Source: Mycobacteriales bacterium (GTDB taxonomy: Bacteria > Actinomycetota > Actinomycetes > JAFAQI01). From it: a DNA stretch of 64,000 bases. The stretch's first letter is position 1, and each line of letters opens with the position of its first letter. Under the pieces are notes generated by a model. That model did not search any database. It was not told the origin of the DNA and saw only the letters and a list, made by a program, of their open reading frames with translations. Shown here in pieces: positions 832-26,474 of the stretch. Made by a program: the position numbers and the translations under genes. Where the stretch lies: positions 8,203 through 72,202 of the forward strand of contig DATJWM010000086.1 of the NCBI GenBank assembly GCA_035501255.1, in the 5' to 3' direction.

Positions 832-1656
832 CTAGCCGAAGCGCCCGTGGACGTAGTCGGCGGTGCGCGCGTCCTTCGGGTTGTTGAAGATGTCCGTGGT
901 GAAACCGGATTCGACGATCGCGCCGGGAGTGCCCATCTCCGCGAGGAAGAACGCGCATTGCTGGGACACCCGCGCCGCCTGCTGCATGTTGTGGGTGACG
1001 ATCACGATCGTGACGTCATGATGCAGATCCGCGATCGTCTCCTCCACCCGCCGGGTCGAGGTCGGATCGAGCGCCGAACACGGCTCGTCCATCAGCAGCA
1101 CCTCCGGGCGCACCGCAAGGGCTCGGGCGATGCACAACCGCTGCTGCTGGCCTCCGGACAACGCCCCCCCGGCGTCTCCGAGGCGGTCCTTGACCTCACC
1201 CCAGAGACTGGCGCGGCTCAGGCATTCTTCGATCAAGTCTGCGCGTTCGGACTTCGACGGCGACGTGCCGGTCAACTTCAGGCCGGCCAGAACGTTGTCG
1301 CCGATCGACATCGTCGGGAACGGGTTCGGCTTTTGGAAGACCATGCCGATCTTGCGACGGGTCTCGGTGATCCGCTGACCAGGCGCATAGATGTCCACCC
1401 CGTCGAGAAGGACCTCGCCGGCTAGCTGCGCACTCGGTACCGATTCGTGCATCCGGTTGAGGATCCGCAAGAACGTCGACTTACCGCAACCCGAGGGACC
1501 GATCAGCGCGGTCACCGTCTTACCCGGCATCGCGAGGGACACCCGTTCGAGCACCTTGTTCGACCCGAACCAGGCGGAGATTCGCACCGCCTCGATCCCG
1601 CTGCCCTGGTTGGATTCGATGCGGAGCCCGGTGGCGGTCTCGTCAATCACCGACAC
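832..1656 (-). CDS. pstB: Phosphate ABC transporter ATP-binding protein PstB (orphan, PhoT-like)
   Basis: 274 aa with Walker A 'GPSGCGKST', signature 'LSGGQQQRL', Walker B 'LLMDEP' and the PstB-typical C-terminus '[19 protein letters not shown]'. Confidence 0.9.
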
Positions 1657-1871: not shown

Positions 1872-2798
1872 GTGTCGCGAGACCAGGTGCGTCGCGGCGC
1901 CACGCTGGTCGCCATCCTCGCCGCCGCCGCAGGAATGTCGCTGACCTCGACGGCAACGGCCGCAATCGCCGCGCCGAAGGCGAAGTGCGACCTCGCAGTC
2001 ACGACGCCGTACTCGGCGGATCGACCGCTTCGCCTGCCCCTCGTTCTCGACTCGACCGGCAACGCCTACTCGGGGAGCGCGGTATTTCGCTCGATCACCG
2101 TGTCGGACACCAGACGTTCGAACAAGCGCTGGACGCTCAAGGCGCTCGCCGGCCCGTTGAGCTTGACGCCGGCGCAAGGCACCGCCGTGGGCGGCACGGG
2201 TGACGGCCAGATCAACTCCCAGAACGTCGGCATCTCGGAGCTGACCACCCTGCGCGCATGGCATGGCTTTTCTCTCGCCCATCACAACCTCACCCTGATC
2301 AACCGGACCGCGGCCTCCCCACCTGCGCCGGCGGCGGCGAGAGGAGGCCTCGGACTGGGTGGCTCGAAGGCGCACCCGATCGCGACCGCGCTCCATGGCC
2401 GTGGCTCCGTGCGCATCGGTGGCGTGCTCACGCTCGACGCGCCGACCTCGACAGCGGCCGGAAGCTTCGTCGGCGAGGTGACCTTCACCGTTGGCTGTGG
2501 GCGGGTGGTGGTTCCCGTCAAGCCGCCCAAGCACCATCACCATCACCATCACCATCACCACCACCACCCGCATTCGCCCAGGCCGACGCCGACCCCCTCA
2601 TCGACGGTGAAAGCCACCGGGGTGCCACGCGGGACCACCAACGGAGGCGGCAACGGCGGCTCGGGAGGCGTGATGCCGTTCACCGGCTTCGACCTCGCTG
2701 GATTCGTCGTCGCTGCGATCATCGCCTTGGCGCTCGGAGCGCTGTTGGTGGTGGCCGGTCGACGGCGTTGGTCGCAGCCGTCAGGTCCTGGGACCTGA
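1872..2798 (+). CDS. Secreted protein with 13-His tract, PT-rich linker and C-terminal sorting-signal-like anchor (MPFTG + TM + RRR)
   Basis: N-terminal signal peptide 'LVAILAAAAGMSLTSTATAAIAAPKA'. Run 'KHHHHHHHHHHHHHPH' at 2532-2576. The C-terminus 'GGVMPFTGFDLAGFVVAAIIALALGALLVVAGRRRW' has the tripartite layout of a sortase sorting signal. The internal module 'LTLDAPTSTAAGSFVGEVTFTV' is shared with the 4986-6842 protein. Confidence 0.6.
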   Translation: MSRDQVRRGATLVAILAAAAGMSLTSTATAAIAAPKAKCDLAVTTPYSADRPLRLPLVLDSTGNAYSGSAVFRSITVSDTRRSNKRWTLKALAGPLSLTPAQGTAVGGTGDGQINSQNVGISELTTLRAWHGFSLAHHNLTLINRTAASPPAPAAARGGLGLGGSKAHPIATALHGRGSVRIGGVLTLDAPTSTAAGSFVGEVTFTVGCGRVVVPVKPPKHHHHHHHHHHHHPHSPRPTPTPSSTVKATGVPRGTTNGGGNGGSGGVMPFTGFDLAGFVVAAIIALALGALLVVAGRRRWSQPSGPGT

Positions 2799-3728
2799 CG
2801 CCGCGGACCTCCGCCGCCAGAGATAGGCACCGCCAACCCCGACGAGAACGACCGCAACGATCACGCCCGCAATCGCGCCGGCATCCGAGCCGCCGCCGGA
2901 CGAGGACGCGTTGTCCTGCGACGCCGCGCCGCTCGTCGTGTCCGGGCCGGGAGAGGTCGTGCCTGAACCCGAGGCTTGGCTCGACGCTCCGCTCGACGGC
3001 TGGGAGGACGGGGTGGACGTGGAGGCACCGAGCGCGGCCGCGCGGGCGGCGATGTTCGCGGCACGACCGATCGGAGCGCCGACCGACTTGGCTGCCACAG
3101 GTGAGAGCAGCTGTGGTCGGCCACGTCCCTGCTTGTTCCACTTCGGCAGCGCGGACTCCGGTGACACGGCCCGACCGGCGGTGCAGTTCACCCGCACGTT
3201 TGTGACGCTGTGCCATGTCGTTCCCGTGACGTCGATGAACGAAGCCGCGTAATTCGTCGAGTAACCGGTGTCGACGCTGCTGTAGAGCACACGCAGCTCG
3301 ATGTAGTGGCCCGCCATCGCCGGGTAGTCGTTGAGAAAGTCCGACAGAGCGAGGTCGCGGGAGGTCGCCTGTGCCATCGGCACGGAAGCGTTGGTGTAAA
3401 CGCTCGCTGCGGTCAGCGTGTCACCGCTCCATTGGGCCGCGTCGATCCCGGGTCGAGGCTGGAAGGCGTAGAGCGTTGCCTTGCGCCCCTTTCCATTGAA
3501 CGGCTGCGGCGCGGCAGCGGTGCTCACTGCGCGCCAGACGAACGGCTTGTCGTACACGCTGCCGTGCGTGATCTGCTGACCGTGGCTGTTGCAGAATCCC
3601 ACGTGCCCCTGGGCGTAGGGGTCGCTCGGTACCGGTGCCGAGGCGCGAGCCGGCACGGCCGCGACGGCGAGGGATCCGGCCGCAATCAGCGCGGCGGCTG
3701 TCAGAGTCGAGGTTCGGATCAAGCGCAT
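2781..3728 (-). CDS. Surface-anchored hypothetical protein (signal peptide, Ser-rich linker, C-terminal TM + RRR)
   Basis: 315 aa. N-terminal signal 'LTAAALIAAGSLAVAAVPARA'. Ser/Gly-rich stretch, then 'AIAGVIVAVVLVGVGGAYLWRRRS' at the C-terminus. No recognisable catalytic motif. Confidence 0.5.
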   Translation of the reverse strand: MRLIRTSTLTAAALIAAGSLAVAAVPARASAPVPSDPYAQGHVGFCNSHGQQITHGSVYDKPFVWRAVSTAAAPQPFNGKGRKATLYAFQPRPGIDAAQWSGDTLTAASVYTNASVPMAQATSRDLALSDFLNDYPAMAGHYIELRVLYSSVDTGYSTNYAASFIDVTGTTWHSVTNVRVNCTAGRAVSPESALPKWNKQGRGRPQLLSPVAAKSVGAPIGRAANIAARAAALGASTSTPSSQPSSGASSQASGSGTTSPGPDTTSGAASQDNASSSGGGSDAGAIAGVIVAVVLVGVGGAYLWRRRSAASGPRT

Positions 3729-3746
3729 GCGGTGTGCCTACCCTTT

Positions 3747-4871
3747 TCAGGTTGTTCCTGCCGAAGCCGGTCCGGTCGTGACCCGGGTCCCCCGCCGGAC
3801 ATTGCGCCTCCGTCGCACCGCAAAGACGGCGGCAGCAACGACGACGAGGATGAGCGCGAGCAGGATCCAGGGGATCGCGAGAAACGTTGCGCTCGCGGAC
3901 GCCGGCTCGGCGCCAGGGTCGACATCGCCCTCAGGGATGAGCGGAGTGAGAACGACGTGCGAGTGGTCGAAGATCGCGGGAGTGACGTCCTGCGCGTGCA
4001 CGGTGATCGACGCGGAATTGCCGGGCAGGAGCGCCGGGACGTTGCTGGCCGCAACCTTGACCGTCGAGCCGATCCAGCTGCTGACCGTCACCAGCTGGCG
4101 CGCACCCAGGTTGACGTTGCCGGTGTTAACCACCCGGTAACTGATCGTGGCGCTCCCTTTCCCGATCGGGTCGAGTGTTGCCGAATACGAGGTGTGCAGG
4201 CCTTCGACCTGAAGTTGTGGGTGCACCGGCCCGGACACCCGGATAGCGACCGGGACGGCCACCCGCTGCTCGAGCTTCGGGTTGACCTTCAGTCCTTTCC
4301 GGGTCTTCACCGCGGCGCTCAGCGAGGAGATGATCCCTGCCGTGTGGTCGCCCGGCGTCGCGTGGCGCGGGACATGCACCTGGACCGCCACGATCGCGCG
4401 GGATCGCGCCGGCACCCGAAGCACATGTCCGTGGTGCGGAAGACCGAGCGTGATCCATGCCCCCGCGTCGCGCGGGGTAGCCGCCTGCGGCTGAAGCCCG
4501 AGCTGTCCGTTCGCAGCGTTCGTCGCATCCCGTGCGTACAGCGCGAGCGTCAGAGGTTTCTTGGAAAAGTTCTCGATCCCGACATGGTCGTGAACGACCG
4601 CTCCAGGACTCACGAACCACTTGAAGTCCGGCCGCCCGTCGATCTTGTGCGCGTTGGCTGGCCCGATGCCCCACGCCAAACTCTTCGGCGACGGCGCGTT
4701 GTGGGTCGGCTCGTTGGCCGCGGGAACCGTGGCCGAGCCTCGGTCGAGCCAGTGCGACGGGCCGACGGTCGTGGCGATGGCGATGGCGAGGACGAGGACA
4801 AGCGCGCGGCAGATCCGATTCGCGGCCCTGCGGGCGAAGCGGTCGCGCGGGGTGGCCACACCGCTAGCCAA
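3747..4871 (-). CDS. Cell-surface protein with N-terminal signal/TM and C-terminal TM + RRRR tail (possibly DUF916/CscA-like, uncertain)
   Basis: 374 aa. N-terminal hydrophobic 'ALVLVLAIAIATTV'. C-terminus 'FLAIPWILLALILVVVAAAVFAVRRRRNV'. The central beta-rich region carries no enzymatic motifs. Confidence 0.45.
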   Translation of the reverse strand: MASGVATPRDRFARRAANRICRALVLVLAIAIATTVGPSHWLDRGSATVPAANEPTHNAPSPKSLAWGIGPANAHKIDGRPDFKWFVSPGAVVHDHVGIENFSKKPLTLALYARDATNAANGQLGLQPQAATPRDAGAWITLGLPHHGHVLRVPARSRAIVAVQVHVPRHATPGDHTAGIISSLSAAVKTRKGLKVNPKLEQRVAVPVAIRVSGPVHPQLQVEGLHTSYSATLDPIGKGSATISYRVVNTGNVNLGARQLVTVSSWIGSTVKVAASNVPALLPGNSASITVHAQDVTPAIFDHSHVVLTPLIPEGDVDPGAEPASASATFLAIPWILLALILVVVAAAVFAVRRRRNVRRGTRVTTGPASAGTT

Positions 4872-7012: not shown

Positions 7013-8290
7013 TCAGCCGGATGAAACGTCGCCGAGGTCCTGGTAGTTCGGGGTGAAGTAGGCCGCGCTGATGTCCGGAGCGTTCGACGCCCGAGCGATC
7101 CAGCTGGTGCTGCCCTTCAGCAGGTCGTTCACGAAGTTCTTCGTGCCGCCTGGCTGGGAGGGCTTACAGCCGGAGTAGCTCGACGACGCACAAGTTCCCG
7201 AACCCGGCGTCAGGCCGAGGTCGTAGTCACGGGCGATGAAGTACAGCCCGCGGGTCGAGTCGTACACCGAGTCGCTGTGTGAAGTGTCGCTGTCGCTGGC
7301 CGGCTTCTGGTCAGCGGACGGGCAGTTCGGCGTCATGTCACCGGTGGTGCAGCCGCTGATCAGCGAGATGTTGAAGTTGGATGCGGGCTCCTGGCTGTTG
7401 CCGTAGTAGCCGCTCTGGATGAGGTTGATCTTGCCGACCGAGAACGGCTCGATCGCGTCCGCCGGAGTCGCCGCCAGCGTGACGCCGGTCGGGTCGTGCT
7501 CCTCACTGATCCGGATGCAAGTGCTCGAACTGATCGTCGAGTCGGACACACCGATGTCGGACTCGAAGAAGTTGCGAGTGCCCGAGCCGGACTGCGGGAT
7601 CACCGGAATGATGTGGTCGGTCGAGGCGCCGGAAGGCGCGCCCGGAACCTCAGCCCACTCGATTCCCTGGCTGCCGTCGCAGTGGCTGTAGATGTAGGCG
7701 AGTTGCGTGCCGTCAAGCGGGAAGCCGTTGAAGCTCACGCTCGACTTCGCGATCTCCAGGTTGTCGGTGGCGAACTGGAACACGTGCAGACCACCGCAGT
7801 CCGTGATACCGGCGCACGACGTCTGCTCCGAGCCCTTCGGCAACCGGGACGCACGGGAGAAGGTGAGCGACCCGGTTGGCAACCCTTGGTAGCCGCCGCC
7901 ACCGACCGAGTCCGCGATCAGCGCGCTGATACCCGCACCCGAGCCATCCGGACGCTCGACCGGCTTCGTGCCGGCCCGCAGCACCGCCGACGTTGTGCCG
8001 TTGCCGTAAAGCAACGCACCGGTGGAGTCGTAGAGCGCCCGGCCGTTGCCGTCACCGGTCGCGAAGTAGTTGTAGACGCTGTTCGTCTTGCCCGTGTTGT
8101 ACGCCGGGTCACCCGCGACGTCACCACTGAACAGGAAGTCCGCAGCGTTCTGAACCGTGTCAGAGCCGACAGCGACCGCGTCGCCCGGACGTGCTTGCGG
8201 ATCGGCCCACGCCGGCTGCATTGCAAACAGCAATGCGGCGGTGGTCCCCGCGGCACCGAGCGCCAGAGTCGCCCTTGCCTTTCTCGACAT
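7013..8290 (-). CDS. Secreted PstS-like (periplasmic binding protein superfamily) domain protein, divergent
   Basis: 425 aa with signal 'LALGAAGTTAALLFAMQPAWA'. 'AVGSDTVQNAADFLF' and 'IIPVIPQSGSGTRNFFESDIG' resemble the 'GSGSTW...' and 'IPIVPIVHSEGSGTSYQF' segments of the PstS at 12274-13956. Assigned by resemblance only. Confidence 0.4.
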   Translation of the reverse strand: MSRKARATLALGAAGTTAALLFAMQPAWADPQARPGDAVAVGSDTVQNAADFLFSGDVAGDPAYNTGKTNSVYNYFATGDGNGRALYDSTGALLYGNGTTSAVLRAGTKPVERPDGSGAGISALIADSVGGGGYQGLPTGSLTFSRASRLPKGSEQTSCAGITDCGGLHVFQFATDNLEIAKSSVSFNGFPLDGTQLAYIYSHCDGSQGIEWAEVPGAPSGASTDHIIPVIPQSGSGTRNFFESDIGVSDSTISSSTCIRISEEHDPTGVTLAATPADAIEPFSVGKINLIQSGYYGNSQEPASNFNISLISGCTTGDMTPNCPSADQKPASDSDTSHSDSVYDSTRGLYFIARDYDLGLTPGSGTCASSSYSGCKPSQPGGTKNFVNDLLKGSTSWIARASNAPDISAAYFTPNYQDLGDVSSG

Positions 8291-8460: not shown

Positions 8461-9441
8461 TCACAGAAGGTTGGGGAGTAGCCGCGCTGCGGTCTCGGTC
8501 ACGACCCAGAGGATCGCGAGCATCGCCGGAACGCCGACCAGCCAGACCTGGCGGCCGCCCCATCGTCGATGCGCCCACACGAAGCCGATCCCGACGACGA
8601 CCAGCAGCTCCAACCAGAGCACCAGCGGGGTGAGCGCGGTGCGATCGATTGCCATCGCCACCTGGTTGGAGGGCTGAACCGTCGGTCCGCCTCCCGGCGA
8701 AGGTTGCGCCTTGCCGACCAGGTTGGCGTCGACGTAGACAACCTGAGAGGGCGCCCACCCACTGCGCCATCCGCTGCCCTCTGCGCTGACCAGAGTGAGG
8801 CGACCCTGGCCGGACGAGAGCAGCGGTGGTACCGGATCGCCAGGCCGTCGTACGTCGGTGACGCGATAGGTGAATGTGCCCTGACCGGTCACTGCCGTGA
8901 TGCCATCACCCGGTTGCAGCCGGGTGATGTGGGCAAACGGTGCACCAAAGGTGGCGCTCTTGCCAAAGACCACGCTCACGCCTGCCTGGCCGGGCAGAAC
9001 GGTGTCCACCCGGTGTCCCGGCCCCTTCTGCAAGTCGGTAGAGGTCGTGCCCTCCACCACAACGGCGCGGTTGATGCCGGCCTGGGAGGCGCTGATGAGA
9101 GCCACCGGCGCACCGTCGGTGATTTGCCCCCCCAGCGGCGCAACCTCGTTGGCCAGATCCGCCCGCAGGCTCGCGTACATCTGCGCCTGTGTGTGCCTCT
9201 CCTGAAAGCCGCTCAGCACCAACGCATACAGCACCACCCAAAACGCGAGTGCACACAACAGCGCGAGAACCACCAGGACCGTTCCGCCGGGTCCGGTGGA
9301 CGGCGGTCCGCCGGCCGCCCACACCGCGCGCATCCGTGCTCCGGACCGCTGGCGCCAACCCGCGAACCCTCCGGCCTCCGCCGGAGCTGACGCCGCGCCC
9401 GGATCGGAAGTGGGCGCCTTGTCCGCCACGCGGGTGCTCAT
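8461..9441 (-). CDS. Sortase-fold membrane protein (class E-like) lacking the catalytic cysteine (TLxTC replaced by 'TLVSA')
   Basis: 326 aa with an N-terminal TM helix. Sortase hallmarks 'GHRVDT', 'TFGAPFAHITRLQPGDGITAVTGQGTFTYRVTDV' (GAPF..L..GD.I......TY.V) and 'LTLVSAEG' at the TLxTC position. The DNA reads 'gtc agc gca', so the loss is not a single-base artefact. The only Cys lies in the TM helix. Two extra C-terminal TM helices. Confidence 0.6.
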   Translation of the reverse strand: MSTRVADKAPTSDPGAASAPAEAGGFAGWRQRSGARMRAVWAAGGPPSTGPGGTVLVVLALLCALAFWVVLYALVLSGFQERHTQAQMYASLRADLANEVAPLGGQITDGAPVALISASQAGINRAVVVEGTTSTDLQKGPGHRVDTVLPGQAGVSVVFGKSATFGAPFAHITRLQPGDGITAVTGQGTFTYRVTDVRRPGDPVPPLLSSGQGRLTLVSAEGSGWRSGWAPSQVVYVDANLVGKAQPSPGGGPTVQPSNQVAMAIDRTALTPLVLWLELLVVVGIGFVWAHRRWGGRQVWLVGVPAMLAILWVVTETAARLLPNLL

Positions 9442-9448
9442 CGGCCGA

Positions 9449-12325
9449 TCACGTCTTCGCGCCCGTTCGGCGCCAACCCCGGACCAACCGGGGTCCGATC
9501 ACCGCGATTGCGGTGACGACCGCCGCCAACAAGACGATCGGGATCGCGATACCCAACGGACCGACCGGCGTCGCGGGAGTCGCCACGGCGGCCGGGCTGG
9601 CACTCTCGCTCGGGGACGAAGCGGGAGACGACGCGGAGGTGGACGAACTCGGTTGTGGCGACGTTCCTCCGTCGCTGTGGGTCGAAGTCGGGCCGGGCGT
9701 TCGGGAGACCGGTGGCGTCGAGCGCTGTGACGACGGCTCGGTCTGGGTCGGTGTGGGGGTCGGATCAGGGCAACCCGACCACTTCGACCTCGTCTGCCCG
9801 GAGCCGTTGATGTTCGGGATTTCGCACTGCTGGTCCGAGACGGCCTGCGCTGCCCGAGCCGTATACGCCGACTCCGCGCCAAGGCCGTTCGCCGCGGTCA
9901 TCGGCAGGTAGCCCGGCGGAAGGTCGCCGAAGGAGTTGCCGGGCGTCTGCCCCGCCTTCGCCGCGAACGACAGCTGCTGGGCAAACGCGCTCGCCGCCTC
10001 AGACGACAACCCCGCACTCGGCACGCTCTCCGACACAAGCATCGTGCCCGGATATGCATGAGCAGTGCTGGAGCCGCTCCGCAGCTTGCCGTAGTCCATC
10101 GACCACGCGTTCATCGACGGATCGGGCTTCAGCGCACTCACTGCGCTGCGCATCGTCTTGGTTGATGCCCGCACGAACGTGCCATCCGCAGGGCCGTGGA
10201 TCTTCGACGTGGGTGACACCGACGACCGCGTCTCCAGCAGCGCGGTGTCGAGGTCGTAGCGTTTGGCCTCCGACAACGACACCACGCCGAGCATGAACCG
10301 CACGCCGGGCTGCTGACGAGGGTCGGCGCTGATCTTGTCGGCCGCCGCCACCGTGGCGATCGTGCAGTTGGTCGTCGAGTTCGGCAGTCCGAACTCCATG
10401 TCATAGGCGGCCGTGGACAGGCTCAGCACCGGGGCGGCAACCAGCGGGAGATACGGCACCTGGAACTGGGTCTGGGCGAAGCATCCTGACTTGTCGGCGT
10501 TGTAGGACTGGGTGGGGACGAAGGTGTCCTTGAGCGGCCAGAAGTCGACCGGAAGCTTCATCCCCTTGTATGCGGGATTGACCACCATCCCCCACGGATC
10601 GGGCTTGCCGTTGATGAACGCCCGGGCGGCCGGGTCAGCCTCGATGTAGGAGGTCAGGGCGCGCATGATGTCGGAGTTCGAGGACAACGCCATCAACTCG
10701 GCCCGGGCCTCGTAGTAGATCAGGTAACCCGGCTGCGGGCTCGCCTTCGGGATGTCGGGGTTAAGCGCTTGGAATTCCGGGTCATCGGTGATGTTCAGCG
10801 GGTTGTCGGCCATCGGACCGGGTGTCGTACCGCCGTCCGGAGAGCCGTCGTCCTGAGCAACCTCGTCGAGCACCGGGTAGGACTCGGTGAGTAACTTTGC
10901 GAGCAGCCTCGGGTCCAGCCTGACATCGAAGACCTCGTTATGGTCGCCGTCGTCGACCAGCGTGGCGATGGCAAACCCGTTGACCGCGACCGGTGCATTG
11001 ACGACGGGATGCCCCGACTTGCCCTCGGGTTTGGAAGGGTAGGTGTCATACGCAGCCTGAATGTTGCCTTCGGACAGGCTGTTGACGGAGGCCGGCTCCG
11101 CCTGCGGGACCTGTGTGAACGGCGTACGCTTCGGATCCGTGCAGAACGCCGGCGCCCACTGTTGGGCGGCCTCGGTCATCAGCTCCGAGCCGTACACGAA
11201 GACCGCGGGCTTGCTGCCGACCACCGAGCAGTAGTCCGCCGGCTTGGCAAAACTCAGCGGCACGGTGATGCGATTGCGCCAGTTCGACGCCGACCACCAC
11301 AAGGCGCCGGTGACGGACTCGAGCGCCATGTTTCCCGGATCACCATCAAGCTCGCGGGTTGCGTTCTCGGCCTGCCCCGACTGGTCGTCGGAGTAGGTGC
11401 AGTTGGCAATGTCCTGCGCACTGAGATCACCCCTGGCCTGCTCGTCACAACTCATCCCGTCGATCGGGATGACGACGAGCGAGCAGGGCACCGACGACGA
11501 ACAGCCGAGGGTCGCGTTGGTCTCGTCGCTCCAGAGAACGAACTTTGCGAGCCCGCTCCCATCGCTCCCGGTCGTGCCAAAAGTGGTGTTGTCCGGAAAG
11601 TCCGCCGTGAACGTACCCTGCTCGGGGGCCAGCTTGCTGCACGCCACCGTGGGACCGCTGTAGTAGGTCTTGCCATTGGCGCCGTCGAGAGGCTGGAAGT
11701 AGTCCGCCTCGTTGAGCGCGTACTTGCTGCAACCAGTGGGCAACGGCTTTGGAACGTTGTTGAAGGCGGGGAGATTTCCCGCGTAGCGATCCATTCGCCA
11801 CGGTGGGTAGTCAGTACCGGGCGCGGTCGCGTTGCGCTCACTCAGGTACTGCGTCCAGCAAGTGTTGGGGCTCAACCGCTGCGCAGCGGGCGCCTTGGAC
11901 GAGTCGACACCCCGGCACTCGAGGACCACGACCGGGTACTCCTCGAGGGTCGCCGCGGTCGAGGAGTTCGGGTCAGGATCGACGTAGTTGCTGGGATGCG
12001 CCCCCTTCCACGAAACGTTGATCTCCTGCAAGGTGCGCAGCTGCTTGGTCGCACTGACACTCACGGTCACTTTCCGCTTGTCGACGGTCTTGGTCTTCCC
12101 GTCCGGAAGAACGTCGCTGCGAGTGATCTGCTTACTGACCGTGACCGCGCCGGCGCCCGCAGCGCTCTTGGCCTGAGCCGCTCCCGAGGCGCCCGCGGCG
12201 CCTGCGACCTGCGCCAGGGAGCCGGCCGCGATCAAAGCCGCCGCAGCGATCGCGACCGCCCGACGCCGGCTGCTCACGACGCCGCACCCGGCGGCGGTGC
12301 GCCGGGCTTGGACCAGCGCCGCCAA
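9449..12325 (-). CDS. Large (~945 aa) surface-anchored Cys-containing hypothetical protein; PT/S-rich linker + C-terminal TM + RR tail
   Basis: Longest ORF on the track. The true start is probably the GTG near 12280 ('VSSRRRAVAIAAAALIAAGSLA' signal peptide), immediately after the pstS stop. The C-terminus reads 'PDPTPTPTQTEPSS...PVGPLGIAIPIVLLAAVVTAIAVIGPRLVRGWRR'. No recognised catalytic domain. Confidence 0.55.
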   Translation of the reverse strand: MAALVQARRTAAGCGVVSSRRRAVAIAAAALIAAGSLAQVAGAAGASGAAQAKSAAGAGAVTVSKQITRSDVLPDGKTKTVDKRKVTVSVSATKQLRTLQEINVSWKGAHPSNYVDPDPNSSTAATLEEYPVVVLECRGVDSSKAPAAQRLSPNTCWTQYLSERNATAPGTDYPPWRMDRYAGNLPAFNNVPKPLPTGCSKYALNEADYFQPLDGANGKTYYSGPTVACSKLAPEQGTFTADFPDNTTFGTTGSDGSGLAKFVLWSDETNATLGCSSSVPCSLVVIPIDGMSCDEQARGDLSAQDIANCTYSDDQSGQAENATRELDGDPGNMALESVTGALWWSASNWRNRITVPLSFAKPADYCSVVGSKPAVFVYGSELMTEAAQQWAPAFCTDPKRTPFTQVPQAEPASVNSLSEGNIQAAYDTYPSKPEGKSGHPVVNAPVAVNGFAIATLVDDGDHNEVFDVRLDPRLLAKLLTESYPVLDEVAQDDGSPDGGTTPGPMADNPLNITDDPEFQALNPDIPKASPQPGYLIYYEARAELMALSSNSDIMRALTSYIEADPAARAFINGKPDPWGMVVNPAYKGMKLPVDFWPLKDTFVPTQSYNADKSGCFAQTQFQVPYLPLVAAPVLSLSTAAYDMEFGLPNSTTNCTIATVAAADKISADPRQQPGVRFMLGVVSLSEAKRYDLDTALLETRSSVSPTSKIHGPADGTFVRASTKTMRSAVSALKPDPSMNAWSMDYGKLRSGSSTAHAYPGTMLVSESVPSAGLSSEAASAFAQQLSFAAKAGQTPGNSFGDLPPGYLPMTAANGLGAESAYTARAAQAVSDQQCEIPNINGSGQTRSKWSGCPDPTPTPTQTEPSSQRSTPPVSRTPGPTSTHSDGGTSPQPSSSTSASSPASSPSESASPAAVATPATPVGPLGIAIPIVLLAAVVTAIAVIGPRLVRGWRRTGAKT

Positions 12326-13956
12326 AGTAGCGGCGGAACGATCAGTGCGGCGAGGAACAGACCGACAGCGAGGAGCCCTAACGCCGTGCTGTTGTCCTGA
12401 CCGTCGGCGACCGTCACCGGCTCACCCTCAACGTTGGCGTTCGTGGTCCCCCCGGTCGATCCGACCCGCTGGCCGGTCACCGGATCGACCGGACCCGTGC
12501 TTGCCGATCCCGTCTTGGTCCGCCCGTTGCCGGATCCCGGCGAGGTCGGGCCCGGAGTCCCGCCTCCCTGGTTGGACCCGCCACCACCGTTCTTTTTGCC
12601 GCCGTCACCGCCCTGCGTTTTGCTCTGGTTCTGCTTCACGCTGGTGATCGAGGGGCCGGTCGAATCGTTGGGGGTCGTGCACGGTCCGTGACCCTGCTCA
12701 TCGCACAGCGGAGGCTCGGGGGCGATCTTGGCGAGGTAGTTCTCGGCGGGGTGGTTGGCGACGAAGGTCGGGTTCCCGCACGTGCTCACGTTCAGGTTGT
12801 TGAGCGAGACCTTCGAGTCAGCCTTGTGCAGCAACCCGATCTGCTGGAACCCTGCCTCCACCAGGTTGATCGGCAAGGCGGAGTACCCGAGGCCGCCGAC
12901 CGCGCCTTGGCCCTGGCAGATCGAGGTGTACAGAAAGTCGGCGAGAGTCTGGCGCTTCGGCGACGTCATCGTCCGGTCGCTGCTCGACGTAGGGATGATG
13001 CCGTAGGAGTACGACGAGACGGGATAGGTCCGTTTGTCGTTGTACCCGTATACGTCCTTCAAATTCTCGAGCAGGTAGTTGTTCGAGTGCCGGTTGTAGT
13101 TGATGATCGCTTTCGTCAACGCCACGGCCACGTTGTACTGCGTCGGGAGCGTGTAGTACCCCGCGGTGTTCTCGACCTTGGCGACCGGAATCTTCTTCGC
13201 GATCGCATAGGAATACTCGTCGTAGCCGATCGTCCCCTGCCCGGACGACGATGCGATGTAGTTCATCAACTGGTCCGAGCCGTTCTGAGCAATCTGTCCG
13301 GACTTGCCGCTCGGCCAGTACTCCGTCGGCTTGTCAGCTCCTGCAAAGCCGGTCCACAGGCTCCTGTCCTCCTGGGCGAGATACGCGGAGAACTGGTAGC
13401 TCGTGCCCGATCCCTCCGAATGCACGATCGGCACGATCGGGATCGAGGGGAACTTCCGACCGTTGTTGTCCGCAGAGATGTGGGAGTCGTCCCAGTTCTT
13501 GATCTGCCCGGTGAAGATCTTGGCAAGAGTCGGCCCTGACAACCGGAGGTTGCGCACGAGCTTGCCGGCCACGGTCAGGTGATATGGGAACGAGGTACCA
13601 CCGGCAACCAGTGGTACATAGGCGTATGGTCGCCCGTTGGACGTGTCGGACACGCCGGTCAGCGGGTCGTGACCCTGGAATCCGATGTCGGACACCGCGA
13701 AGTCGACCGCTTTGTTGGCGAAGTCCTGACGGCCCGCCGCCGAGCCGTTCCCGGTGAAGGTCACCCGCAGACCTTGTCCTGACACCTCGCCGATCCAGGC
13801 GTTGACCGCGTTGTAGGCCCAGGTCGAGCCGGAACCGTTGATCTGCGCCGTGCCGGTGGCGTACGACGGCGTCGCGGTCAGTGCGACCAGACCGGACGCG
13901 GCACACAGGGACAAAACCCGCGCCCGGGCGCGGCCGGCGCGGCGGTGTCCGGTCAT
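12274..13956 (-). CDS. pstS: Phosphate-binding protein PstS with Gly-rich C-terminal extension and C-terminal TM anchor
   Basis: Start ATG 13954-13956 overlaps the pstA stop (ATGA). Signal 'VLSLCAASGLVALTATPSYA'. PstS core motifs 'NGSGSTWAYNAVNAW', 'SAAGRQDFANKAVDFAVSD' and 'SEGSGTSYQF'. Then a 'GGDGGKKNGGGGSNQGGG' linker and 'ALGLLAVGLFLAALIVPPLLWRRW' at the C-terminus. The upstream part of ORF 12274-14271 is an unsupported extension. Confidence 0.8.
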   Translation of the reverse strand: MTGHRRAGRARARVLSLCAASGLVALTATPSYATGTAQINGSGSTWAYNAVNAWIGEVSGQGLRVTFTGNGSAAGRQDFANKAVDFAVSDIGFQGHDPLTGVSDTSNGRPYAYVPLVAGGTSFPYHLTVAGKLVRNLRLSGPTLAKIFTGQIKNWDDSHISADNNGRKFPSIPIVPIVHSEGSGTSYQFSAYLAQEDRSLWTGFAGADKPTEYWPSGKSGQIAQNGSDQLMNYIASSSGQGTIGYDEYSYAIAKKIPVAKVENTAGYYTLPTQYNVAVALTKAIINYNRHSNNYLLENLKDVYGYNDKRTYPVSSYSYGIIPTSSSDRTMTSPKRQTLADFLYTSICQGQGAVGGLGYSALPINLVEAGFQQIGLLHKADSKVSLNNLNVSTCGNPTFVANHPAENYLAKIAPEPPLCDEQGHGPCTTPNDSTGPSITSVKQNQSKTQGGDGGKKNGGGGSNQGGGTPGPTSPGSGNGRTKTGSASTGPVDPVTGQRVGSTGGTTNANVEGEPVTVADGQDNSTALGLLAVGLFLAALIVPPLLWRRWSKPGAPPPGAAS

Positions 13957-15059
13957 CGAACGGAGCCCTTCTGACGGGATGCGAGGAAACGAATGAGGAC
14001 GAAAACGACCAGCACGATGATGAGCAGCAGGCTCGCGGCACCGAAGGCGCGGGTGATGAAGTTGGGCTCGCCGCTGCGCACGCCCGAGTAGACGAACAGC
14101 GGCAAGGAGTTCATCGGGTTGTTGACCGGGTTCGTGTTGAAGTACGTCGACGCACCTGAGGTGATCAAAACTGGCGCTGTCTCGCCGACGGCCCGAGCGA
14201 ACGCGAGAATCAACGCGGTCGCGAGACCGGCTCCGGCCGTTGGCAGCACCACCCGCCAGACCATCCGCCACTTCGGAGCACCGAGCGCGAGCCCCGCCTC
14301 CCTCAGCCCGCCCGGCACAACCCGAAGCGAAAGCTCAGCCGATCGCGCGATGATCGGCAGCATGGTGATGGTGAGTGCGATCGCGGCGGCGAGTCCGCTC
14401 TTTTGCATCCCCAGGCCGACGATCAGCAGGGTGTAGACGAACAAACCGGCGATCAGGTCAGGAAGGGCGGTCATCGCCTCAACGACGGTTCGCACGGTAC
14501 GCGCGAGCGGGCCACCAACCTCCGTCATGTACACGGCGGTCGCGATTCCGAGCGGAAGTGCGACCGCGGTCGCGATCGCCAGTTCGATCAGGCTGCCGAC
14601 CACCGCGTGCAAGACACCACCGCGAGTCAGCGGATCCGTCGGCTGCACCGCGTTCATGTCCTGGGTGTAGAAGTTCATGTGGTGGAGCGCCGGCCACCCG
14701 CGAACGAACGTGTAGATGATCGTGGTGGCCAGGGCGAAGGCGACGATCCCCGCCCCGGCACAGATGATCGCGCGCATGAGTCGATCCACGACGACCGGGC
14801 GCGGGTGCGACATCGCGGTGACCGCGGTGTACAGCGCGAGGAAGCTGAGATACCAGCACACGATGAAGCCGAGCAGGCCATGTTCCGGAAGGAGCTCGCC
14901 GTAGACGATCCAGACGGCGCCGAGCGATCCGAACAGCGAGCCGAAGAAGGACAGCACGTCATCGGTCGTCCGGACGGCGAGCTCGCGCGGACGGTCCTCG
15001 CCGGCACCATCGGGGAGGTTGCCGGACACGGACGGCATCGGCAGTGACTCGGTCGACAT
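13953..15059 (-). CDS. pstA: Phosphate ABC transporter permease PstA
   Basis: 368 aa with 6 TM helices. ABC permease EAA-like region 'ARAVGETAPVLITSG'. Position after pstC and before pstS. Its stop overlaps the pstS start. Confidence 0.8.
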   Translation of the reverse strand: MSTESLPMPSVSGNLPDGAGEDRPRELAVRTTDDVLSFFGSLFGSLGAVWIVYGELLPEHGLLGFIVCWYLSFLALYTAVTAMSHPRPVVVDRLMRAIICAGAGIVAFALATTIIYTFVRGWPALHHMNFYTQDMNAVQPTDPLTRGGVLHAVVGSLIELAIATAVALPLGIATAVYMTEVGGPLARTVRTVVEAMTALPDLIAGLFVYTLLIVGLGMQKSGLAAAIALTITMLPIIARSAELSLRVVPGGLREAGLALGAPKWRMVWRVVLPTAGAGLATALILAFARAVGETAPVLITSGASTYFNTNPVNNPMNSLPLFVYSGVRSGEPNFITRAFGAASLLLIIVLVVFVLIRFLASRQKGSVR

Positions 15060-16243
15060 CAGATCTCCGTTGCCGCGCCACTACGGCTGCGAGTGACGAT
15101 CATCCCGGCGATCGTGTTCACGACCAGCGTCAGCGCGAAGAGGACAAAGCCGGCGGCGAGCAATGCCTTGAGCTGGAGTGAGGTCGAATCGCCGAAGCGA
15201 TCGGCAATCAACGACGAGGTCGTGATCGCACCGACCTGCAGCGCGTGAATGTTGACCTTGTAGACCAGCGAGATGATCAGCAAAACGGCGATCGTCTCGC
15301 CCAATGCGCGACCGAGTCCGAGCATCGTCCCCCCGATGATCCCGCCCCGACCGAATGGCAAGACGACCGTTCGAATCACGCCCCACTTGGTCGAACCCAG
15401 GGCAAGGGCGGCTTCACGTTCACCGATCGGTGCCTGCGCAAAAACGCCGCGCATGACCGCACACGTCAGCGGGGTCACCATCATCGCGACCGCGATCCCG
15501 GCGATGAACGCCGAAGCCGTGAACTGTGTCTCCGCCCAGGTCGCAGAGTGCGCATCGGTGTCGACGGACAGGAAGGGGATCCAACCGAAGTACTCCGCAA
15601 GCCAACGGGAAAGCCCGAGGACATGCGGTTGGAGGAGGAAGAAGCCCCACAGGCCATAGACGATGCTCGGCACCGCGGCCATCAGGTCGACGAGCGAGAC
15701 GAGGGTCGCCTTGATCCGCCTGGGCGCGAACTCGGTGATGAACAACGCCGTACACAACGCGAGCGGAAAGGCGATCGCGAGCGCGATCAGGCCGATCTCG
15801 ACCGTGCCGAACAGCGCAGCTGCCACACCCAACTTGTTCTGGTCCGGGTTCCAATCGGTTTCGGTGAAGAAGCTGAACCCGTAGTGCTTGATCGTCGGGA
15901 TCAGCTGAAGGGCCAGGAAGAACCCGATTGCGGCGGTCAGGACCAGAACGAGCACGCCGATGACCGTTGACACGCCGTTGAACGCACGGTCCGAAGGAGC
16001 CAGACCGGCATGGATGAACCGCGGTTTGTCAGGTGCTTCCGCGTCGAACGCGGTGATGTCGACGTCCGGCACTGTTACAGCCGTCGAACGGCGCTGGCCA
16101 CGCACCCAGCCACGGTGCTCGGGGTGGGCGACCACGGAGATGACTCGATCGAAACAGGTCGTGGCTTCGCAGCGAACAACAGGTGAACGACCACAACGCC
16201 CGGACGCCCAAGGCGGCCCCGGCAACGGGCAAAGCGGGTGCAA
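15059..16243 (-). CDS. pstC: Phosphate ABC transporter permease PstC (true start probably internal, ~16078)
   Basis: TM core 'FTETDWNPD', 'LGRALGETIAVLLI'. The annotated N-terminal ~55 aa ('MHPLCPLPGPPWASGRCGRSPVVRCE...') is non-membrane, Cys-rich and overlaps the PHO-box-like repeat. A GTG/ATG start around residues 46-63 is more plausible. Confidence 0.75.
   Translation of the reverse strand: MHPLCPLPGPPWASGRCGRSPVVRCEATTCFDRVISVVAHPEHRGWVRGQRRSTAVTVPDVDITAFDAEAPDKPRFIHAGLAPSDRAFNGVSTVIGVLVLVLTAAIGFFLALQLIPTIKHYGFSFFTETDWNPDQNKLGVAAALFGTVEIGLIALAIAFPLALCTALFITEFAPRRIKATLVSLVDLMAAVPSIVYGLWGFFLLQPHVLGLSRWLAEYFGWIPFLSVDTDAHSATWAETQFTASAFIAGIAVAMMVTPLTCAVMRGVFAQAPIGEREAALALGSTKWGVIRTVVLPFGRGGIIGGTMLGLGRALGETIAVLLIISLVYKVNIHALQVGAITTSSLIADRFGDSTSLQLKALLAAGFVLFALTLVVNTIAGMIVTRSRSGAATEI
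16160..16187 (-). promoter_or_regulatory. PHO-box-like direct repeat (GTTCACCTGTT GTTCGCTGCGA) upstream of pstCAS
   Basis: The minus strand reads 'GTCGTTCACCTGTTGTTCGCTGCGA': two 11-nt direct-repeat units with the GTTCACC core of actinobacterial PhoP/PHO boxes. It lies just upstream of the likely real pstC start. Confidence 0.4.
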
Positions 16244-16460: not shown

Positions 16461-17585
16461 ATGGCACACCTTCGGCGACGAATCCTTGCCGGAATCGGCG
16501 CGCTTGCCGTCTCGGGGGTGACGGTCCTTGCGGCCGGCTCCTCGGCTTCGGCGGACTCGACCACCCCCGGCTGGGAGCCCGATCCGAACGCCATCGGCTC
16601 GATCACTCTCTACGACTCGAGCGGGAGCCCGATCACGAGCGGCAACCTCAGCGACGTACCGTTCGCGGCCTACGCCGTGGCGACCCACGCCGGCCGCAGT
16701 GGTGACGATCACGCCCAGCTTTACGCCTACACCCCCCAGGAGGGTGGCGCGAACCCACAAACCTGGAGCGGGGATGAGCTCGGCGCGAGCGCGTACAACC
16801 CGGTGCCCAACGGCACGCCTGCAGCGGTTTCGGCGAGCGGTAATCCGTTCGTGACCGGTACTGACCTGTCCATGGACGACTACATCGGCGAGTACCCGAA
16901 CAACCTCACCGACAGCGGCTATGCCGACCTCTACGAGTTGCGCATCTTCACCGCAGGCCCCTCCCAGCAGCCCGACACCTCCCAGTACGACCGGCTTGAC
17001 ATCTCGGTCGACTCCGGTGCGGGCACGTGGCAGGTCGTCTACCCGGGTTCGGCGCCGACGCTCAACGGCAGCGTCACCATTTCCGGCAAGGTGCGGGTCG
17101 GCAGCACCGTCACCTGTAACGCCTCCTTCACCGACGCCACGTCGACCAGCTACGCGTGGTCGGTCAACTCGGCGGCGATCAGCGGAGCCACCAAGAGCAC
17201 CTTCATGATCCCGGCGAAGGACTACAAGAAGTCGCTCACGTGTACCGCGACCGGCATGAACGGCGGCGGATCGACGCCAGGTACGAGTTCGGCCTCGAAG
17301 GTCGGGCTGGGCGCGGCCCTTCATGCGACGAAGAAGCCGACCATCTCCGGCAAGCCCGCCGTAGGCAAGACTGTGAAGGTCTCCCACGGCACCTGGTCGC
17401 CGGCGGCGAAGTCCTACGCCTACCAGTGGGAGCTCAACGGCAAGAAGATCAAGAAGGCCACCAAGGACAAGCTGAAGATCTCCAAGTCCGAAAAGGGGAA
17501 GAAGCTGTCCTGCAAGGTGACGGCGATCCTGACCGGTTACGCCGATGGTGCAACCACGACGAAGTCGGTCAAGGTCAAGAAGTAG
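16461..17585 (+). CDS. Secreted protein: N-terminal domain paralogous to the 4986-6842 product, plus two Lys-rich Ig-like tandem repeats
   Basis: 374 aa with signal 'ILAGIGALAVSGVTVLAAGSSASA'. The N-terminal ~200 aa are strongly similar to the 4986-6842 protein. The C-terminus has two ~65-aa repeats ('ISGKVRVGSTVTCNASF...YAWSVNSAAISGATKSTF...KKSLTCTATG' / 'ISGKPAVGKTVKVSHGTW...YAYQWELNGKKIKKATKDKL...KKLSCKVTA'). Confidence 0.7.
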   Translation: MAHLRRRILAGIGALAVSGVTVLAAGSSASADSTTPGWEPDPNAIGSITLYDSSGSPITSGNLSDVPFAAYAVATHAGRSGDDHAQLYAYTPQEGGANPQTWSGDELGASAYNPVPNGTPAAVSASGNPFVTGTDLSMDDYIGEYPNNLTDSGYADLYELRIFTAGPSQQPDTSQYDRLDISVDSGAGTWQVVYPGSAPTLNGSVTISGKVRVGSTVTCNASFTDATSTSYAWSVNSAAISGATKSTFMIPAKDYKKSLTCTATGMNGGGSTPGTSSASKVGLGAALHATKKPTISGKPAVGKTVKVSHGTWSPAAKSYAYQWELNGKKIKKATKDKLKISKSEKGKKLSCKVTAILTGYADGATTTKSVKVKK

Positions 17586-18173: not shown

Positions 18174-18336
18174 GGGTACCCTCCGGCGTCCGACCTCGGC
18201 CGCGGCGAGGGTCAGACTTCACAATCCGCGCTCGGCCATGCTGTGCAGCGAGTACACCCGATCGACGACGACGGCGGCTGAGCGGCAGACGAACACCAAA
18301 TGTGCGGTACGTGAACGAACGGTGGACGCCACCGCC

Positions 18337-26473: not shown

Positions 26474-26474
26474 G

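Follow-up and report, generated by a model that had tools for sequence, protein, structure and literature searches.

Bacterial ABC importers are taught to hold their binding proteins in one of three ways, namely free in the periplasm, anchored by a lipid, or fused to the permease, and the PstS-1, PstS-2 and PstS-3 proteins of Mycobacterium tuberculosis are lipoproteins. The window analyzed here, a stretch of 64,000 nucleotides from a Mycobacteriales bacterium, encodes a PstS-like protein that ends in a membrane segment. How is such a protein held at the cell surface, what does it bind, and what do the surface proteins encoded around it contribute? The initial annotation had described a PstS core followed by a Gly-rich stalk, a C-terminal transmembrane (TM) helix and a basic tail, in place of a lipid anchor, and profiles, composition and hydropathy all agree with this description (Table 1).

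Table 1. Features of the tethered-PstS locus, with positions in the window, strand and supporting evidence.
Feature	Position	Strand	Evidence
pstB ATPase, displaced to far end of locus, likewise in Nocardioides and Marmoricola	832..1656	-	TIGR00972, synteny
Small WxL-like protein (308 aa), His12 run, MPFTG + TM + RRR sortase-type signal	1872..2798	+	motif, domain identity
315-aa protein, Ser-rich linker, C-terminal TM anchor (aa 278-305)	2781..3728	-	BLASTP, hydropathy
WxLIP-like protein (374 aa), DUF916-type + Ig-like domain, C-terminal TM anchor	3747..4871	-	PF06030
Large WxL-like surface protein, 618 aa	4986..6842	-	Big_3_5 match, orthologue WxL matches
Secreted anchor-less PstS-fold protein, 425 aa	7013..8290	-	family profile, AlphaFold, Foldseek
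Pseudo-sortase, class-E-like fold, three TM helices, conserved C-terminal LLPNL	8461..9441	-	profiles, orthologues
942-aa protein (958-aa ORF), degenerate PstS fold + C-terminal TM anchor	9449..12277	-	fold comparison
PstS-long, TM-tethered PstS-type binding protein, 560 aa	12274..13956	-	profiles, homologues, hydropathy
PstS-long: basic, Arg-rich tail RRWSKPGAPPPGAAS, predicted cytoplasmic	12277..12321	-	family tail comparison
PstS-long: transmembrane helix TALGLLAVGLFLAALIVPPLLW, aa 524-545, near-invariant PP	12322..12387	-	hydropathy 2.5
PstS-long: Gly/Thr/Ser-rich low-complexity stalk, aa 427-523, 97 aa	12388..12678	-	composition
PstS-long: Cys-rich extension, aa 369-426, family-specific	12679..12852	-	invariant alignment columns
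PstS-long: PBP type-II (PstS) core, aa 34-368, VHSEGSGT motif	12853..13857	-	profile + alignment
PstS-long: signal peptide, aa 1-33, SPase-I site SYA/TG, no lipobox	13858..13956	-	sequence
pstA permease, N-terminal extension of ~65 aa vs E. coli	13953..15059	-	TIGR00974
pstC permease, longest ORF; true start probably further downstream	15059..16243	-	TIGR02138
PHO-box-like direct repeat GTTCACCTGTTGTTCGC, upstream of pstC	16172..16188	-	motif match, weak evidence

The protein, which we call PstS-long, belongs to the PstS family of binding proteins and is exported by means of a cleavable SPase-I signal. Residues 33-343 match Pfam PBP_like_2 (PF12849) with an E-value of 2.8e-33 and 116 bits against a 27-bit cut-off, and the best sequence matches in the PDB are PstS proteins without exception (E about 1e-21). 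Against the NCBIfam PstS model TIGR00975 it scores 175.4 bits, below the equivalog cut-off of 205 bits. Cys393, Cys418, Cys426 and an NPTF motif are invariant columns of the family alignment in the Cys-rich extension. Residues 427-522 consist of 25% Gly, 16% Thr and 10% Ser (74% G/S/T/N/P/Q), and both the length and the sequence of the stalk vary within the family. It leads into the single strongly hydrophobic segment of the protein (521-546, Kyte-Doolittle 2.5), which is followed by RRWSK. Among the best 120 database homologues, one partial sequence excepted, lengths range from 493 to 651 aa, and the C-terminal hydrophobic segment is present in 118 of 119; the same is true of 72 of the 73 complete orthologues taken from genome loci. 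Because homologue lengths and the hydrophobic segment are kept throughout the family, the layout is not a product of chance. Lipoprotein anchoring is out: besides the SPase-I site, no lipobox was seen on reading the sequence, in which Cys18 sits within the h-region after a Leu, and a lipobox-like string occurs in only 3 of the 119 family members.

The ligand site of PstS-long is largely that of the E. coli protein, with 7 of 8 ligand positions kept (T10, the F11 backbone, S38, D56, S139, G140 and T141). The position of Arg135, which contacts phosphate directly in E. coli PstS, is occupied by His179. This replacement is a family trait, as 117 of 119 members have His there (Gln occurs in some) and 118 of 119 have Glu at the position of Asp137, the partner of Arg135. 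In the genome orthologues the motif reads VHSEG(S/A)G in 51 of 73 and VQSEGSG in 6 of 73, with Arg at the 135 position in one only. Since Arg135 is replaced, the specificity, affinity or pH dependence of PstS-long may differ. The putative ligand, orthophosphate or a molecule very similar to it, would be bound via the His/Glu pair that replaces Arg135/Asp137.

The permeases argue for phosphate import, because both exceed their equivalog cut-offs and keep the transmembrane Arg/Glu pairs. PstC scores 244 bits against TIGR02138 (cut-off 196 bits), and PstA scores 212 bits against TIGR00974 (cut-off 193 bits). The window PstC aligns with E. coli PstC at E 9e-48, and its GLGRALGET sequence keeps R237/E241, as FARAVGET of PstA keeps R220/E224; in an E. 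coli cryo-EM study these residues form the transmembrane Pi site (PMC12976172). PstB reaches 333.5 bits against TIGR00972, just short of the 343-bit cut-off. The link to phosphate is further supported by an adjacent PPK2 gene, which adjoins the locus in the window and in the related loci L004 and L010, and, weakly, by PHO-box-like repeats upstream: with at most one mismatch, two such repeats occur in the window against 0.32 expected, and their density upstream of related loci is 3.8-fold background. The locus itself has no phoU, and positions 19-44 kb of the window, which hold ordinary metabolic genes, contain no phoU, phoR/phoP or second pstS.

We therefore consider it fairly likely that PstS-long is the C-terminally tethered receptor of a putative second, non-canonical Pst-type phosphate ABC importer. 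The C-terminal helix would stay in the membrane after export (N-out, C-in), substituting for the lipoprotein anchor, and the 97-aa stalk may allow the binding domain to range through the cell-wall zone before returning to dock on PstCA.

Two further proteins of the locus have a PstS fold. The initial annotation had proposed that the 425-aa product is a second, divergent PstS-like protein without an anchor, and this holds: it has a signal peptide, shows no hydrophobic anchor by hydropathy, and is a member of the PBP_like_2/PstS superfamily by both profile and fold. The window copy falls below the Pfam PBP_like_2 and TIGR02136 cut-offs, but PF12849 is present in most of its homologues, and the family profile matches solved PstS structures with E 6e-12. 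Its AlphaFold model (pLDDT 81, pTM 0.83) returned phosphate-binding proteins as the best 41 Foldseek matches (41/41). Invariant in the family are the motifs GSDT, GSGAG, RASR and SGSGTR. The 425-aa protein retains the motifs that make up the anion site in the short PstS subfamily, and probably binds a phosphate group too, whether free or wall-held. The original suggestion of tethered plus released phosphate capture is tempered by the His (or Gln) and Glu replacements in the PstS-long family, and release of the 425-aa protein is hypothetical.

The 942-aa protein consists of an N-terminal beta-rich and Cys-rich domain, a PstS fold, a Ser/Pro linker and the C-terminal TM anchor. Single-sequence Pfam and NCBIfam scans gave nothing usable for either the 425-aa protein or the 958-aa ORF, and single-sequence PDB searches gave nothing. 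For the latter even the family profile found no real match among PDB sequences, and its PstS domain, complete but degenerate at about aa 370-850 of the 958-aa ORF, is visible by fold comparison only. In an hhalign alignment with a probability of 47%, Glu381, Glu410 and Asp552 fall at the T10, S38 and SGT positions, and SSNSD (SSDSDV in the family consensus) stands in place of SEGSGT. Because acidic residues occupy the places where anion ligands are expected in that alignment, and in view of synteny and fold, the 942-aa protein is probably a scaffold or pseudo-receptor that does not bind phosphate.

The gene next to it, to which it is translationally linked, encodes a sortase homologue whose family profile matches sortase structures with E 3e-19. 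Like class E sortases such as Streptomyces coelicolor SrtE1 (PDB 5cuw), it has a beta-barrel, an N-terminal TM anchor and a GPGH sequence. Unlike them, it has Arg or Lys in place of the catalytic His (R33/K8/H2 in 43 orthologues) and Ala or Ser in place of the catalytic Cys (A20/S20, with no conserved Cys anywhere), and it carries two extra C-terminal TM helices and the LLPNL end. The match to Pfam Sortase (PF04203) covers only profile positions 9-83 of 125, leaving unmatched the C-terminal third (84-125), where the catalytic Arg lies, and the score against class_E_sortase is 64 bits, with a cut-off of 160 bits. A conserved VYVDA stands at the place of the catalytic Arg, an assignment made by eye only and outside every alignment to real sortases. 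On the basis of synteny and fold, this dead sortase is probably a non-catalytic membrane partner of the anchored proteins.

On the other side of the 425-aa gene lies a module that resembles the WxL clusters of Firmicutes. A WxL cluster is defined by at least one WxLIP and at least two WxL proteins within adjacent genes, and the commonest make-up of the Firmicutes clusters (Csc/Elr) is one WxLIP with a small and a large WxL protein, often together with one LPXTG protein (PMC10599100). The module in the window likewise combines a TM-anchored WxLIP-like protein, large and small WxL-like proteins, and an LPXTG-like signal. The 618-aa protein has a 'GWEPDPN' domain at its N-terminus, then Big_3_5 repeats, and at its C-terminus a WxL-like domain that shares 41% identity with its counterpart in the 308-aa protein. 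Pfam WxL (PF13731) is matched by 2 of the 29 orthologues of the 618-aa protein (E 2.5e-5) and by neither WxL-like copy in the window. The 374-aa protein matches WxLIP_PGBD (PF06030) with E 1.8e-5, just under the cut-off, whereas 17 of its 29 orthologues do match, the best with E 1.3e-10. The N-terminal domains of the 315-aa and 618-aa proteins are related (BLASTP E 5e-11). In contrast to the Firmicutes clusters, the host belongs to the Actinomycetota, the sequences are divergent, with most copies missing the Pfam thresholds, the sortase-type signal sits on the small WxL protein itself, and the module is joined to the genes of a Pst transporter, of three PstS-fold proteins and of a dead sortase. 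Synteny and fold suggest that this module could place the assembly in the peptidoglycan layer. The third PstS-fold protein, the dead sortase and the fusion of the locus to a WxL-type cluster go beyond the initial annotation, which had also assigned the anchoring layout of PstS-long to four neighbours. A C-terminal TM segment is indeed found in the 958-, 315-, 374- and 308-aa proteins, but the last of these is probably anchored differently, because it bears a real LPXTG-like motif (MPFTG).

This company raises the alternative that the locus is mainly a cell-surface complex of the WxL type, whose PstS-fold domains bind something other than free orthophosphate, such as the phosphates of a wall teichoic-type polymer, eDNA, phytate, organophosphates or another oxyanion, with the ABC transporter importing that ligand or having a structural or signalling role. 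The obligatory linkage with WxL, WxLIP and Ig-domain proteins and the presence of three PstS-fold paralogues in a single locus, one with an apparently acidic pocket, are in keeping with this idea. So are the family-wide change of Arg135 to His or Gln and of Asp137 to Glu, and the scores of PstS-long and PstB below their equivalog cut-offs, observations that also count against the phosphate-importer reading. However, the phosphate-site Arg/Glu pairs of PstA and PstC are intact, both permeases pass their cut-offs, seven of the eight PstS ligand positions are kept, and the PPK2 adjacency and the PHO-box-like repeats suggest phosphate; we regard such a complex as unlikely.

A second alternative concerns the anchor. 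The C-terminus of PstS-long might be a cleavable sorting signal and not a permanent anchor, the helix being removed by a sortase-like or other enzyme, so that PstS-long, and with it the 942-aa protein, would be covalently joined to peptidoglycan or lipid, or released. The C-terminus of the family is tripartite, with a helix and a basic tail preceded by about 10 residues by a loosely conserved PT(E/D)L(A/S) motif (a weak 'VPTELA'), and could thus be a processing signal; a sortase-family gene always lies two genes downstream of PstS-long, and the neighbouring 308-aa protein bears a real signal of the MPFTG type. Yet the window copy has no PTEL, reading EPVTVADGQ instead, and neither LPXTG nor LAXTG occurs ahead of the hydrophobic segment in the PstS-long tail. 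Even with the E-value limit relaxed to 10, curated C-terminal sorting-domain models gave zero matches to the tails of PstS-long and the 942-aa protein, which leaves LPXTG, LAXTG and curated sorting domains out as the identity of these tails. The PP, found in 115 of 119 members together with a Leu at -15 (90/94) and an RR tail, lies at the cytoplasmic end of the helix and not before it. Furthermore, the locus encodes no cognate active sortase for PstS-long, the linked homologue lacking the catalytic His in 41 and the catalytic Cys in all 43 of 43 orthologues. We regard cleavage as improbable. As for the helix itself, conservation of the TM segment is 0.36 against 0.25 in a shuffled control, modestly above the composition-based prediction, and the idea of a strongly conserved helix with specific packing is weakly supported.

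With the tethered importer as the preferred reading, the cohesion of the locus across genomes becomes relevant. In 80 loci from Actinomycetes and Acidimicrobiia, the core pstB-pstC-pstA-PstS-950aa-pseudosortase, in which 950aa denotes the counterparts of the 942-aa gene, is syntenic in essentially every long-enough locus, and conservation of the locus extends across non-mycolate Actinomycetota. The WxL module adjoins this core, on either side, in nearly all long loci. Translational coupling links the PstS-long gene to both its neighbours, pstA upstream and the 942-aa gene downstream: the pstA stop overlaps the PstS-long start as ATGA, and ATGA and GTGA overlaps join the three genes. An ordinary redundant Pst operon beside unrelated surface-protein genes, with the accessory genes uninvolved, would fit the several pst paralogues of many actinobacteria, established for Mycobacterium, and the position of the WxL module upstream of the core in some genomes, but it is very improbable given that downstream of PstS-long the 950-aa gene and the pseudo-sortase are present in all long-enough loci of two classes, that start and stop codons overlap, that the 950-aa and 425-aa proteins are PstS-fold paralogues, that the WxL module is so regularly adjoining, and that in P0184 the 950-aa protein and the pseudo-sortase are fused in frame (one case, and weak evidence). 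An apparent Rosetta-stone fusion of PBP_like_2 with the 950-aa protein, P0222, was rejected as a frameshift artefact, its middle being Arg-rich out-of-frame junk.

A much bolder proposal, which we offer as a long shot, is that the locus encodes an unrecognized wall-spanning, multi-receptor phosphate relay of monoderm Actinomycetota. The dead sortase would have taken on a new role as a membrane adaptor that non-covalently grips the conserved C-terminal helices and motifs of PstS-long and the 942-aa pseudo-receptor, while the WxL and WxLIP proteins would fix the assembly in peptidoglycan. The 425-aa protein, acting in the outer wall, could then capture phosphate or its esters and hand the ligand inward to the His-containing PstS-long, which would feed PstCAB. 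Such a relay, if true, has no known counterpart among ABC importers.

In comparison with canonical PstSCAB of E. coli, the system shares the same four component families, the type-II PBP fold, seven of eight ligand positions and the Arg/Glu pairs. It differs in gene order (B-C-A-S), in the absence of phoU from the locus, and in the six to seven accessory surface-protein genes that are always attached to it. PstS-long itself has the Cys-rich extension, the His and Glu substitutions, and a 97-aa stalk leading to a C-terminal TM helix, whereas canonical PstS has an N-terminal lipid or is free in the periplasm. No curated family or paper describing the tethered-PstS locus was found, and a full-text literature search for C-terminally anchored PstS, PstS with sortase, or Cys-less sortase returned no relevant paper. 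An identical anchoring logic is known from oligopeptide-class binding proteins of Sulfolobus solfataricus and Aeropyrum pernix, in which an SPase-I signal is combined with a TM segment at the C-terminus, preceded by a Ser/Thr-rich, probably glycosylated linker (PMC3387779). These crenarchaeal proteins differ from PstS-long in domain of life, PBP class and substrate, and the likeness is an analogy, with nothing to indicate that the anchors share an origin. Tethering by a C-terminal TM helix on a flexible stalk, a trait of the whole family, represents a fourth solution to holding a binding protein, known mainly from archaea, and it defines a large unannotated PstS subfamily in which a His/Glu pair replaces the Arg/Asp ligand pair. 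This pair could alter pH dependence or oxyanion selectivity, and the locus is common in Actinomycetota of acid soil and freshwater. The locus also adds a conserved pseudo-sortase and a PstS-fold protein without a recognizable sequence family, and is evidence for WxL-type wall clusters outside the Firmicutes. Its cultured hosts include Nocardioides, Dactylosporangium and Jatrophihabitans, and the locus is hence testable.

The 560-aa protein PstS-long carries a Pfam PBP_like_2 domain at residues 33-343 (E 2.8e-33), and a sequence search against solved structures returned PstS proteins in 17 of 17 matches (E about 1e-21); its score against the NCBIfam PstS model TIGR00975, 175 bits, falls under the 205-bit equivalog cut-off. 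The window is high-GC (~66%), and one of its proteins shares 100% identity with a hypothetical protein from a 'Mycobacteriales bacterium' MAG (P0121). The PstS core is followed by a family-specific extension and a Gly-rich stalk, and then by TALGLLAVGLFLAALIVPPLLW, the sole strongly hydrophobic stretch in the mature protein (Kyte-Doolittle 2.5), and a terminal RRWSK... tail. The signal peptide is of the classical SPase-I type (ending in TPSYA, followed by TG), and there is no lipobox, because the lone Cys sits within the h-region, after a Leu. These results bear out the layout given in the initial annotation, a PstS core on a Gly-rich stalk with a C-terminal TM helix and basic tail, together with its view that the protein is not N-terminally lipidated. 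It had also ascribed this anchoring layout to four neighbors, and the 958-, 315-, 374- and 308-aa proteins all end in a hydrophobic segment and a basic tail.

Features of the locus, in window coordinates unless residues (aa) are given
Feature	Position	Strand	Remarks
pstB	832-1656	-	slightly under NCBIfam cut-off, 333.5 vs 343 bits
Small WxL-like protein	1872-2798	+	308 aa
315-aa protein	2781-3728	-	
WxLIP-like protein	3747-4871	-	374 aa
Large WxL-like protein	4986-6842	-	618 aa
425-aa PstS-like protein	7013-8290	-	
Pseudo-sortase	8461-9441	-	class-E-like sortase homologue; gene directly after 942-aa protein
942-aa protein	9449-12277	-	958-aa ORF
PstS-long	12274-13956	-	560 aa
PstS-long, PBP core	aa 34-368		
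PstS-long, family-specific extension	aa 369-426		conserved cysteines
PstS-long, low-complexity stalk	aa 427-523		Gly 25%, Thr 16%, Ser 10%
pstA	13953-15059	-	above NCBIfam PstA equivalog cut-off
pstC	15059-16243	-	above NCBIfam PstC equivalog cut-off
PHO-box-like direct repeat GTTCACCTGTTGTTCGC	16172-16188	-	5' of pstC
Further GWEPDPN-domain protein	16461-17585	+	
PHO-box-like direct repeat	18311-18327	-	beside PPK2
Polyphosphate kinase 2 (PPK2) gene	18337-19281	-	adjoins locus
DsbD/CcdA-type fusion	19446-21227	+	
ABC ATPase fusion	25520-27548	-	

The C-terminal anchor layout is a trait of the PstS-long family. A database search with PstS-long gave 3726 relatives, and among the best 120 of these (119 complete), on which traits were scored, length is 493-651 aa throughout, barring one partial sequence. 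A C-terminal hydrophobic segment is present in 118 of the 119 complete sequences and a lipobox-like string in only three of the 119, while 72 of 73 complete orthologues from genome loci carry the anchor. The family tail follows the consensus L(A/G)xLAxLLLLAALxxPP(L/V)L(A/S)RR(L/W)RRR, in which Pro-Pro is near-invariant (115/119). Some 10 residues further upstream the family shows a loosely conserved VPT(E/D)LA, which is absent from the window copy. As conservation of the helix (0.36 vs 0.25 in a shuffled control) is just modestly above that expected from composition, we make no case for specific helix packing.

The binding site was mapped by HMMER alignments of PstS-long to PstS from E. coli and Xanthomonas. 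The family retains the equivalents of E. coli T10, F11, S38, D56, S139, G140 and T141, with Trp in PstS-long at the F11 position, a backbone ligand. Arg135 is replaced by His in 117 and Asp137 by Glu in 118 of 119 members, giving the motif VHSEGSG(S/T); the 73 genome orthologues include 51 with VHSEG(S/A)G, six with VQSEGSG, and one with Arg at the Arg135 position. Judging from these alignments, the His/Glu pair marks the subfamily and is not one genome's oddity. The Arg-to-His change speaks for one of the two main alternative readings, that the PstS folds of the locus bind something other than free phosphate; the intact transmembrane phosphate site speaks against that reading. In the cryo-EM structure of E. 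coli PstSCAB (2026), the membrane-domain phosphate is flanked by Arg220 of PstA, which pairs with Glu224, and by Arg237 of PstC, which pairs with Glu241 (PMC12976172), and FARAVGET in the window PstA and GLGRALGET in the window PstC fall exactly at these Arg/Glu positions.

PstS-long is translationally coupled to these permeases, which carry intact phosphate-site residues, within a conserved multi-gene locus: the pstA stop overlaps its start (ATGA), and its own stop overlaps the start of the following gene, that of the 942-aa protein (GTGA). PPK2 adjoins the locus in the window, as it does in the related loci L004 and L010. The pattern GTTCAC N5 GTTCAC, allowing at most one mismatch, matches twice in the window vs 0.32 expected, both matches carrying one mismatch, and across 68 related loci such PHO-box-like repeats reach 3.8 times the background density in upstream regions, a weak indication. 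Taken together, the permease scores above cut-off, the intact Arg/Glu sites, the gene overlaps, the adjacency of PPK2 and the PHO-box-like repeats lead us to argue that the cargo is phosphate or a very close analogue. The ligand of PstS-long would be orthophosphate, held by His/Glu instead of Arg/Asp, and by its sequence the system is a Pst-type importer, a known kind, in a new form. The window PstA is longer than E. coli PstA by about 65 aa at its N-terminus; this extension adds one or two hydrophobic segments and might serve to dock the PstS-long TM tether.

The protein encoded after PstS-long is a third PstS-fold protein of the locus, overlooked in the initial annotation. The real start of its 958-aa ORF is the GTG at 12277, giving 942 aa arranged as a Cys-rich beta domain, the PstS fold, and a Ser/Pro linker that leads to a TM anchor; the ORF has no match in Pfam, NCBIfam or PDB sequences. 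A low-confidence hhalign alignment (47%) puts Glu381, Glu410 and Asp552 at anion-ligand positions, and because of these acidic residues the protein is probably not a phosphate binder. The pseudo-sortase gene always lies immediately after the gene of this family (the 950-aa family), and one metagenomic protein, P0184, is a single in-frame fusion of the two; a second apparent fusion, P0222, of PBP_like_2 with the 950-aa protein, was rejected as a frameshift artefact. Among 43 pseudo-sortase orthologues, the catalytic His is lost in 41 (Arg 33, Lys 8, His 2) and the catalytic Cys in all 43 (Ala 20, Ser 20), with no conserved Cys at any position. The C-terminal part has acquired two TM helices and closes with an invariant ..LLPNL. 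With the linked sortase dead, LPXTG absent and sorting-domain models unmatched, the other main alternative, that the PstS-long C-terminus is a processing signal, finds little room.

PstS-long is a receptor of the PstS family: it has a signal peptide but no lipid-anchor signal, and its core is followed by a stalk, a TM helix and a basic tail. Its helix would remain in the membrane as a substitute for the lipid anchor, and the stalk would allow the receptor to roam the wall zone and then return to PstCA. The anchoring principle is not new, since oligopeptide-binding proteins of Crenarchaeota show the same layout (PMC3387779); our literature search found no description of a C-terminal TM tether on a bacterial PstS.

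The 425-aa protein has a signal peptide (ending in QPAWA, followed by D) and no anchor. The window copy alone is under every Pfam threshold; a profile from 46 orthologues matches PstS and DING proteins of solved structure, with E from 6e-12 to 1e-4, hhalign relates the family to PstS-long (E 3.7e-6), and most database homologues carry PF12849 and a phosphate-type binding protein annotation, which places the protein within the PBP-like 2 superfamily. Its AlphaFold model (pLDDT 81, pTM 0.83) gave phosphate-binding proteins as 41 of 41 best Foldseek matches. The family motifs GSDT, GSGAG, RASR and SGSGTR vary little or not at all, and they align with counterparts in the Vibrio cholerae PstS, which is of the short (TIGR02136) type. 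Profile, hhalign and Foldseek therefore agree with its earlier description as a second, divergent PstS-like protein without an anchor.

The genes at 1872-6842 form a probable actinobacterial counterpart of the Firmicutes WxL cluster: their WxLIP-like, large WxL-like and small WxL-like proteins mirror its set of one WxLIP, one large and one small WxL protein (PMC10599100), and divergence keeps most copies under Pfam thresholds. The 374-aa protein is WxLIP-like (PF06030, E 1.8e-5 in the window copy; 17 of 29 orthologues match). The 618- and 308-aa proteins have a WxL-like C-terminal domain in common, and Pfam WxL is matched by two of 29 orthologues of the former. In the small WxL-like protein, a 12-His run is followed by a linker rich in Pro and Thr and by an MPFTG + TM + RRR signal, and LAXTG-type anchor models weakly match its tail. 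A domain of about 190 aa that could be assigned to no family ('GWEPDPN...YQLRI') stands at the N-terminus of the 618-aa protein, the 315-aa protein and a further 374-aa protein, encoded at 16461-17585; the identity between the 618-aa protein and this 374-aa protein is 45%, and the 315-aa protein is matched by BLASTP at E 5e-11.

The tethered PstS is the visible part of a larger actinobacterial locus, widely conserved and previously undescribed, and the finding is real and of more interest than initially stated. Scanning a single genome for each species gave 217 loci, and in the best 80 of these the order pstB-pstC-pstA-PstS-long-950aa-pseudosortase is held wherever the contig suffices. The second module (425-aa PstS-like, WxL, WxLIP and 315-aa genes) lies directly downstream or directly upstream of this core, and pstB is at the far end of the locus in Nocardioides, Marmoricola and the window. 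Hosts include Frankiales, Jatrophihabitans, Acidothermaceae, Nocardioides, Marmoricola, Dactylosporangium, Pseudonocardiales, Streptosporangiaceae, Nanopelagicales and Acidimicrobiia. Among 1.84 billion proteins, clustering at 50% leaves 272 representatives of the 950-aa family at E <= 1e-30. No curated Pfam/NCBIfam or sorting-domain model was found for the PstS-long subfamily, the 950-aa protein or the pseudo-sortase. Beside this locus of Cys-rich secreted proteins lies a gene for a DsbD/CcdA-type membrane domain joined with redoxin and thioredoxin-like domains in one protein, which may supply disulfide handling. Elsewhere in the window, an ABC ATPase is fused to a cyclic-nucleotide-binding domain, an unusual combination, and adjoins an FtsX-like permease.
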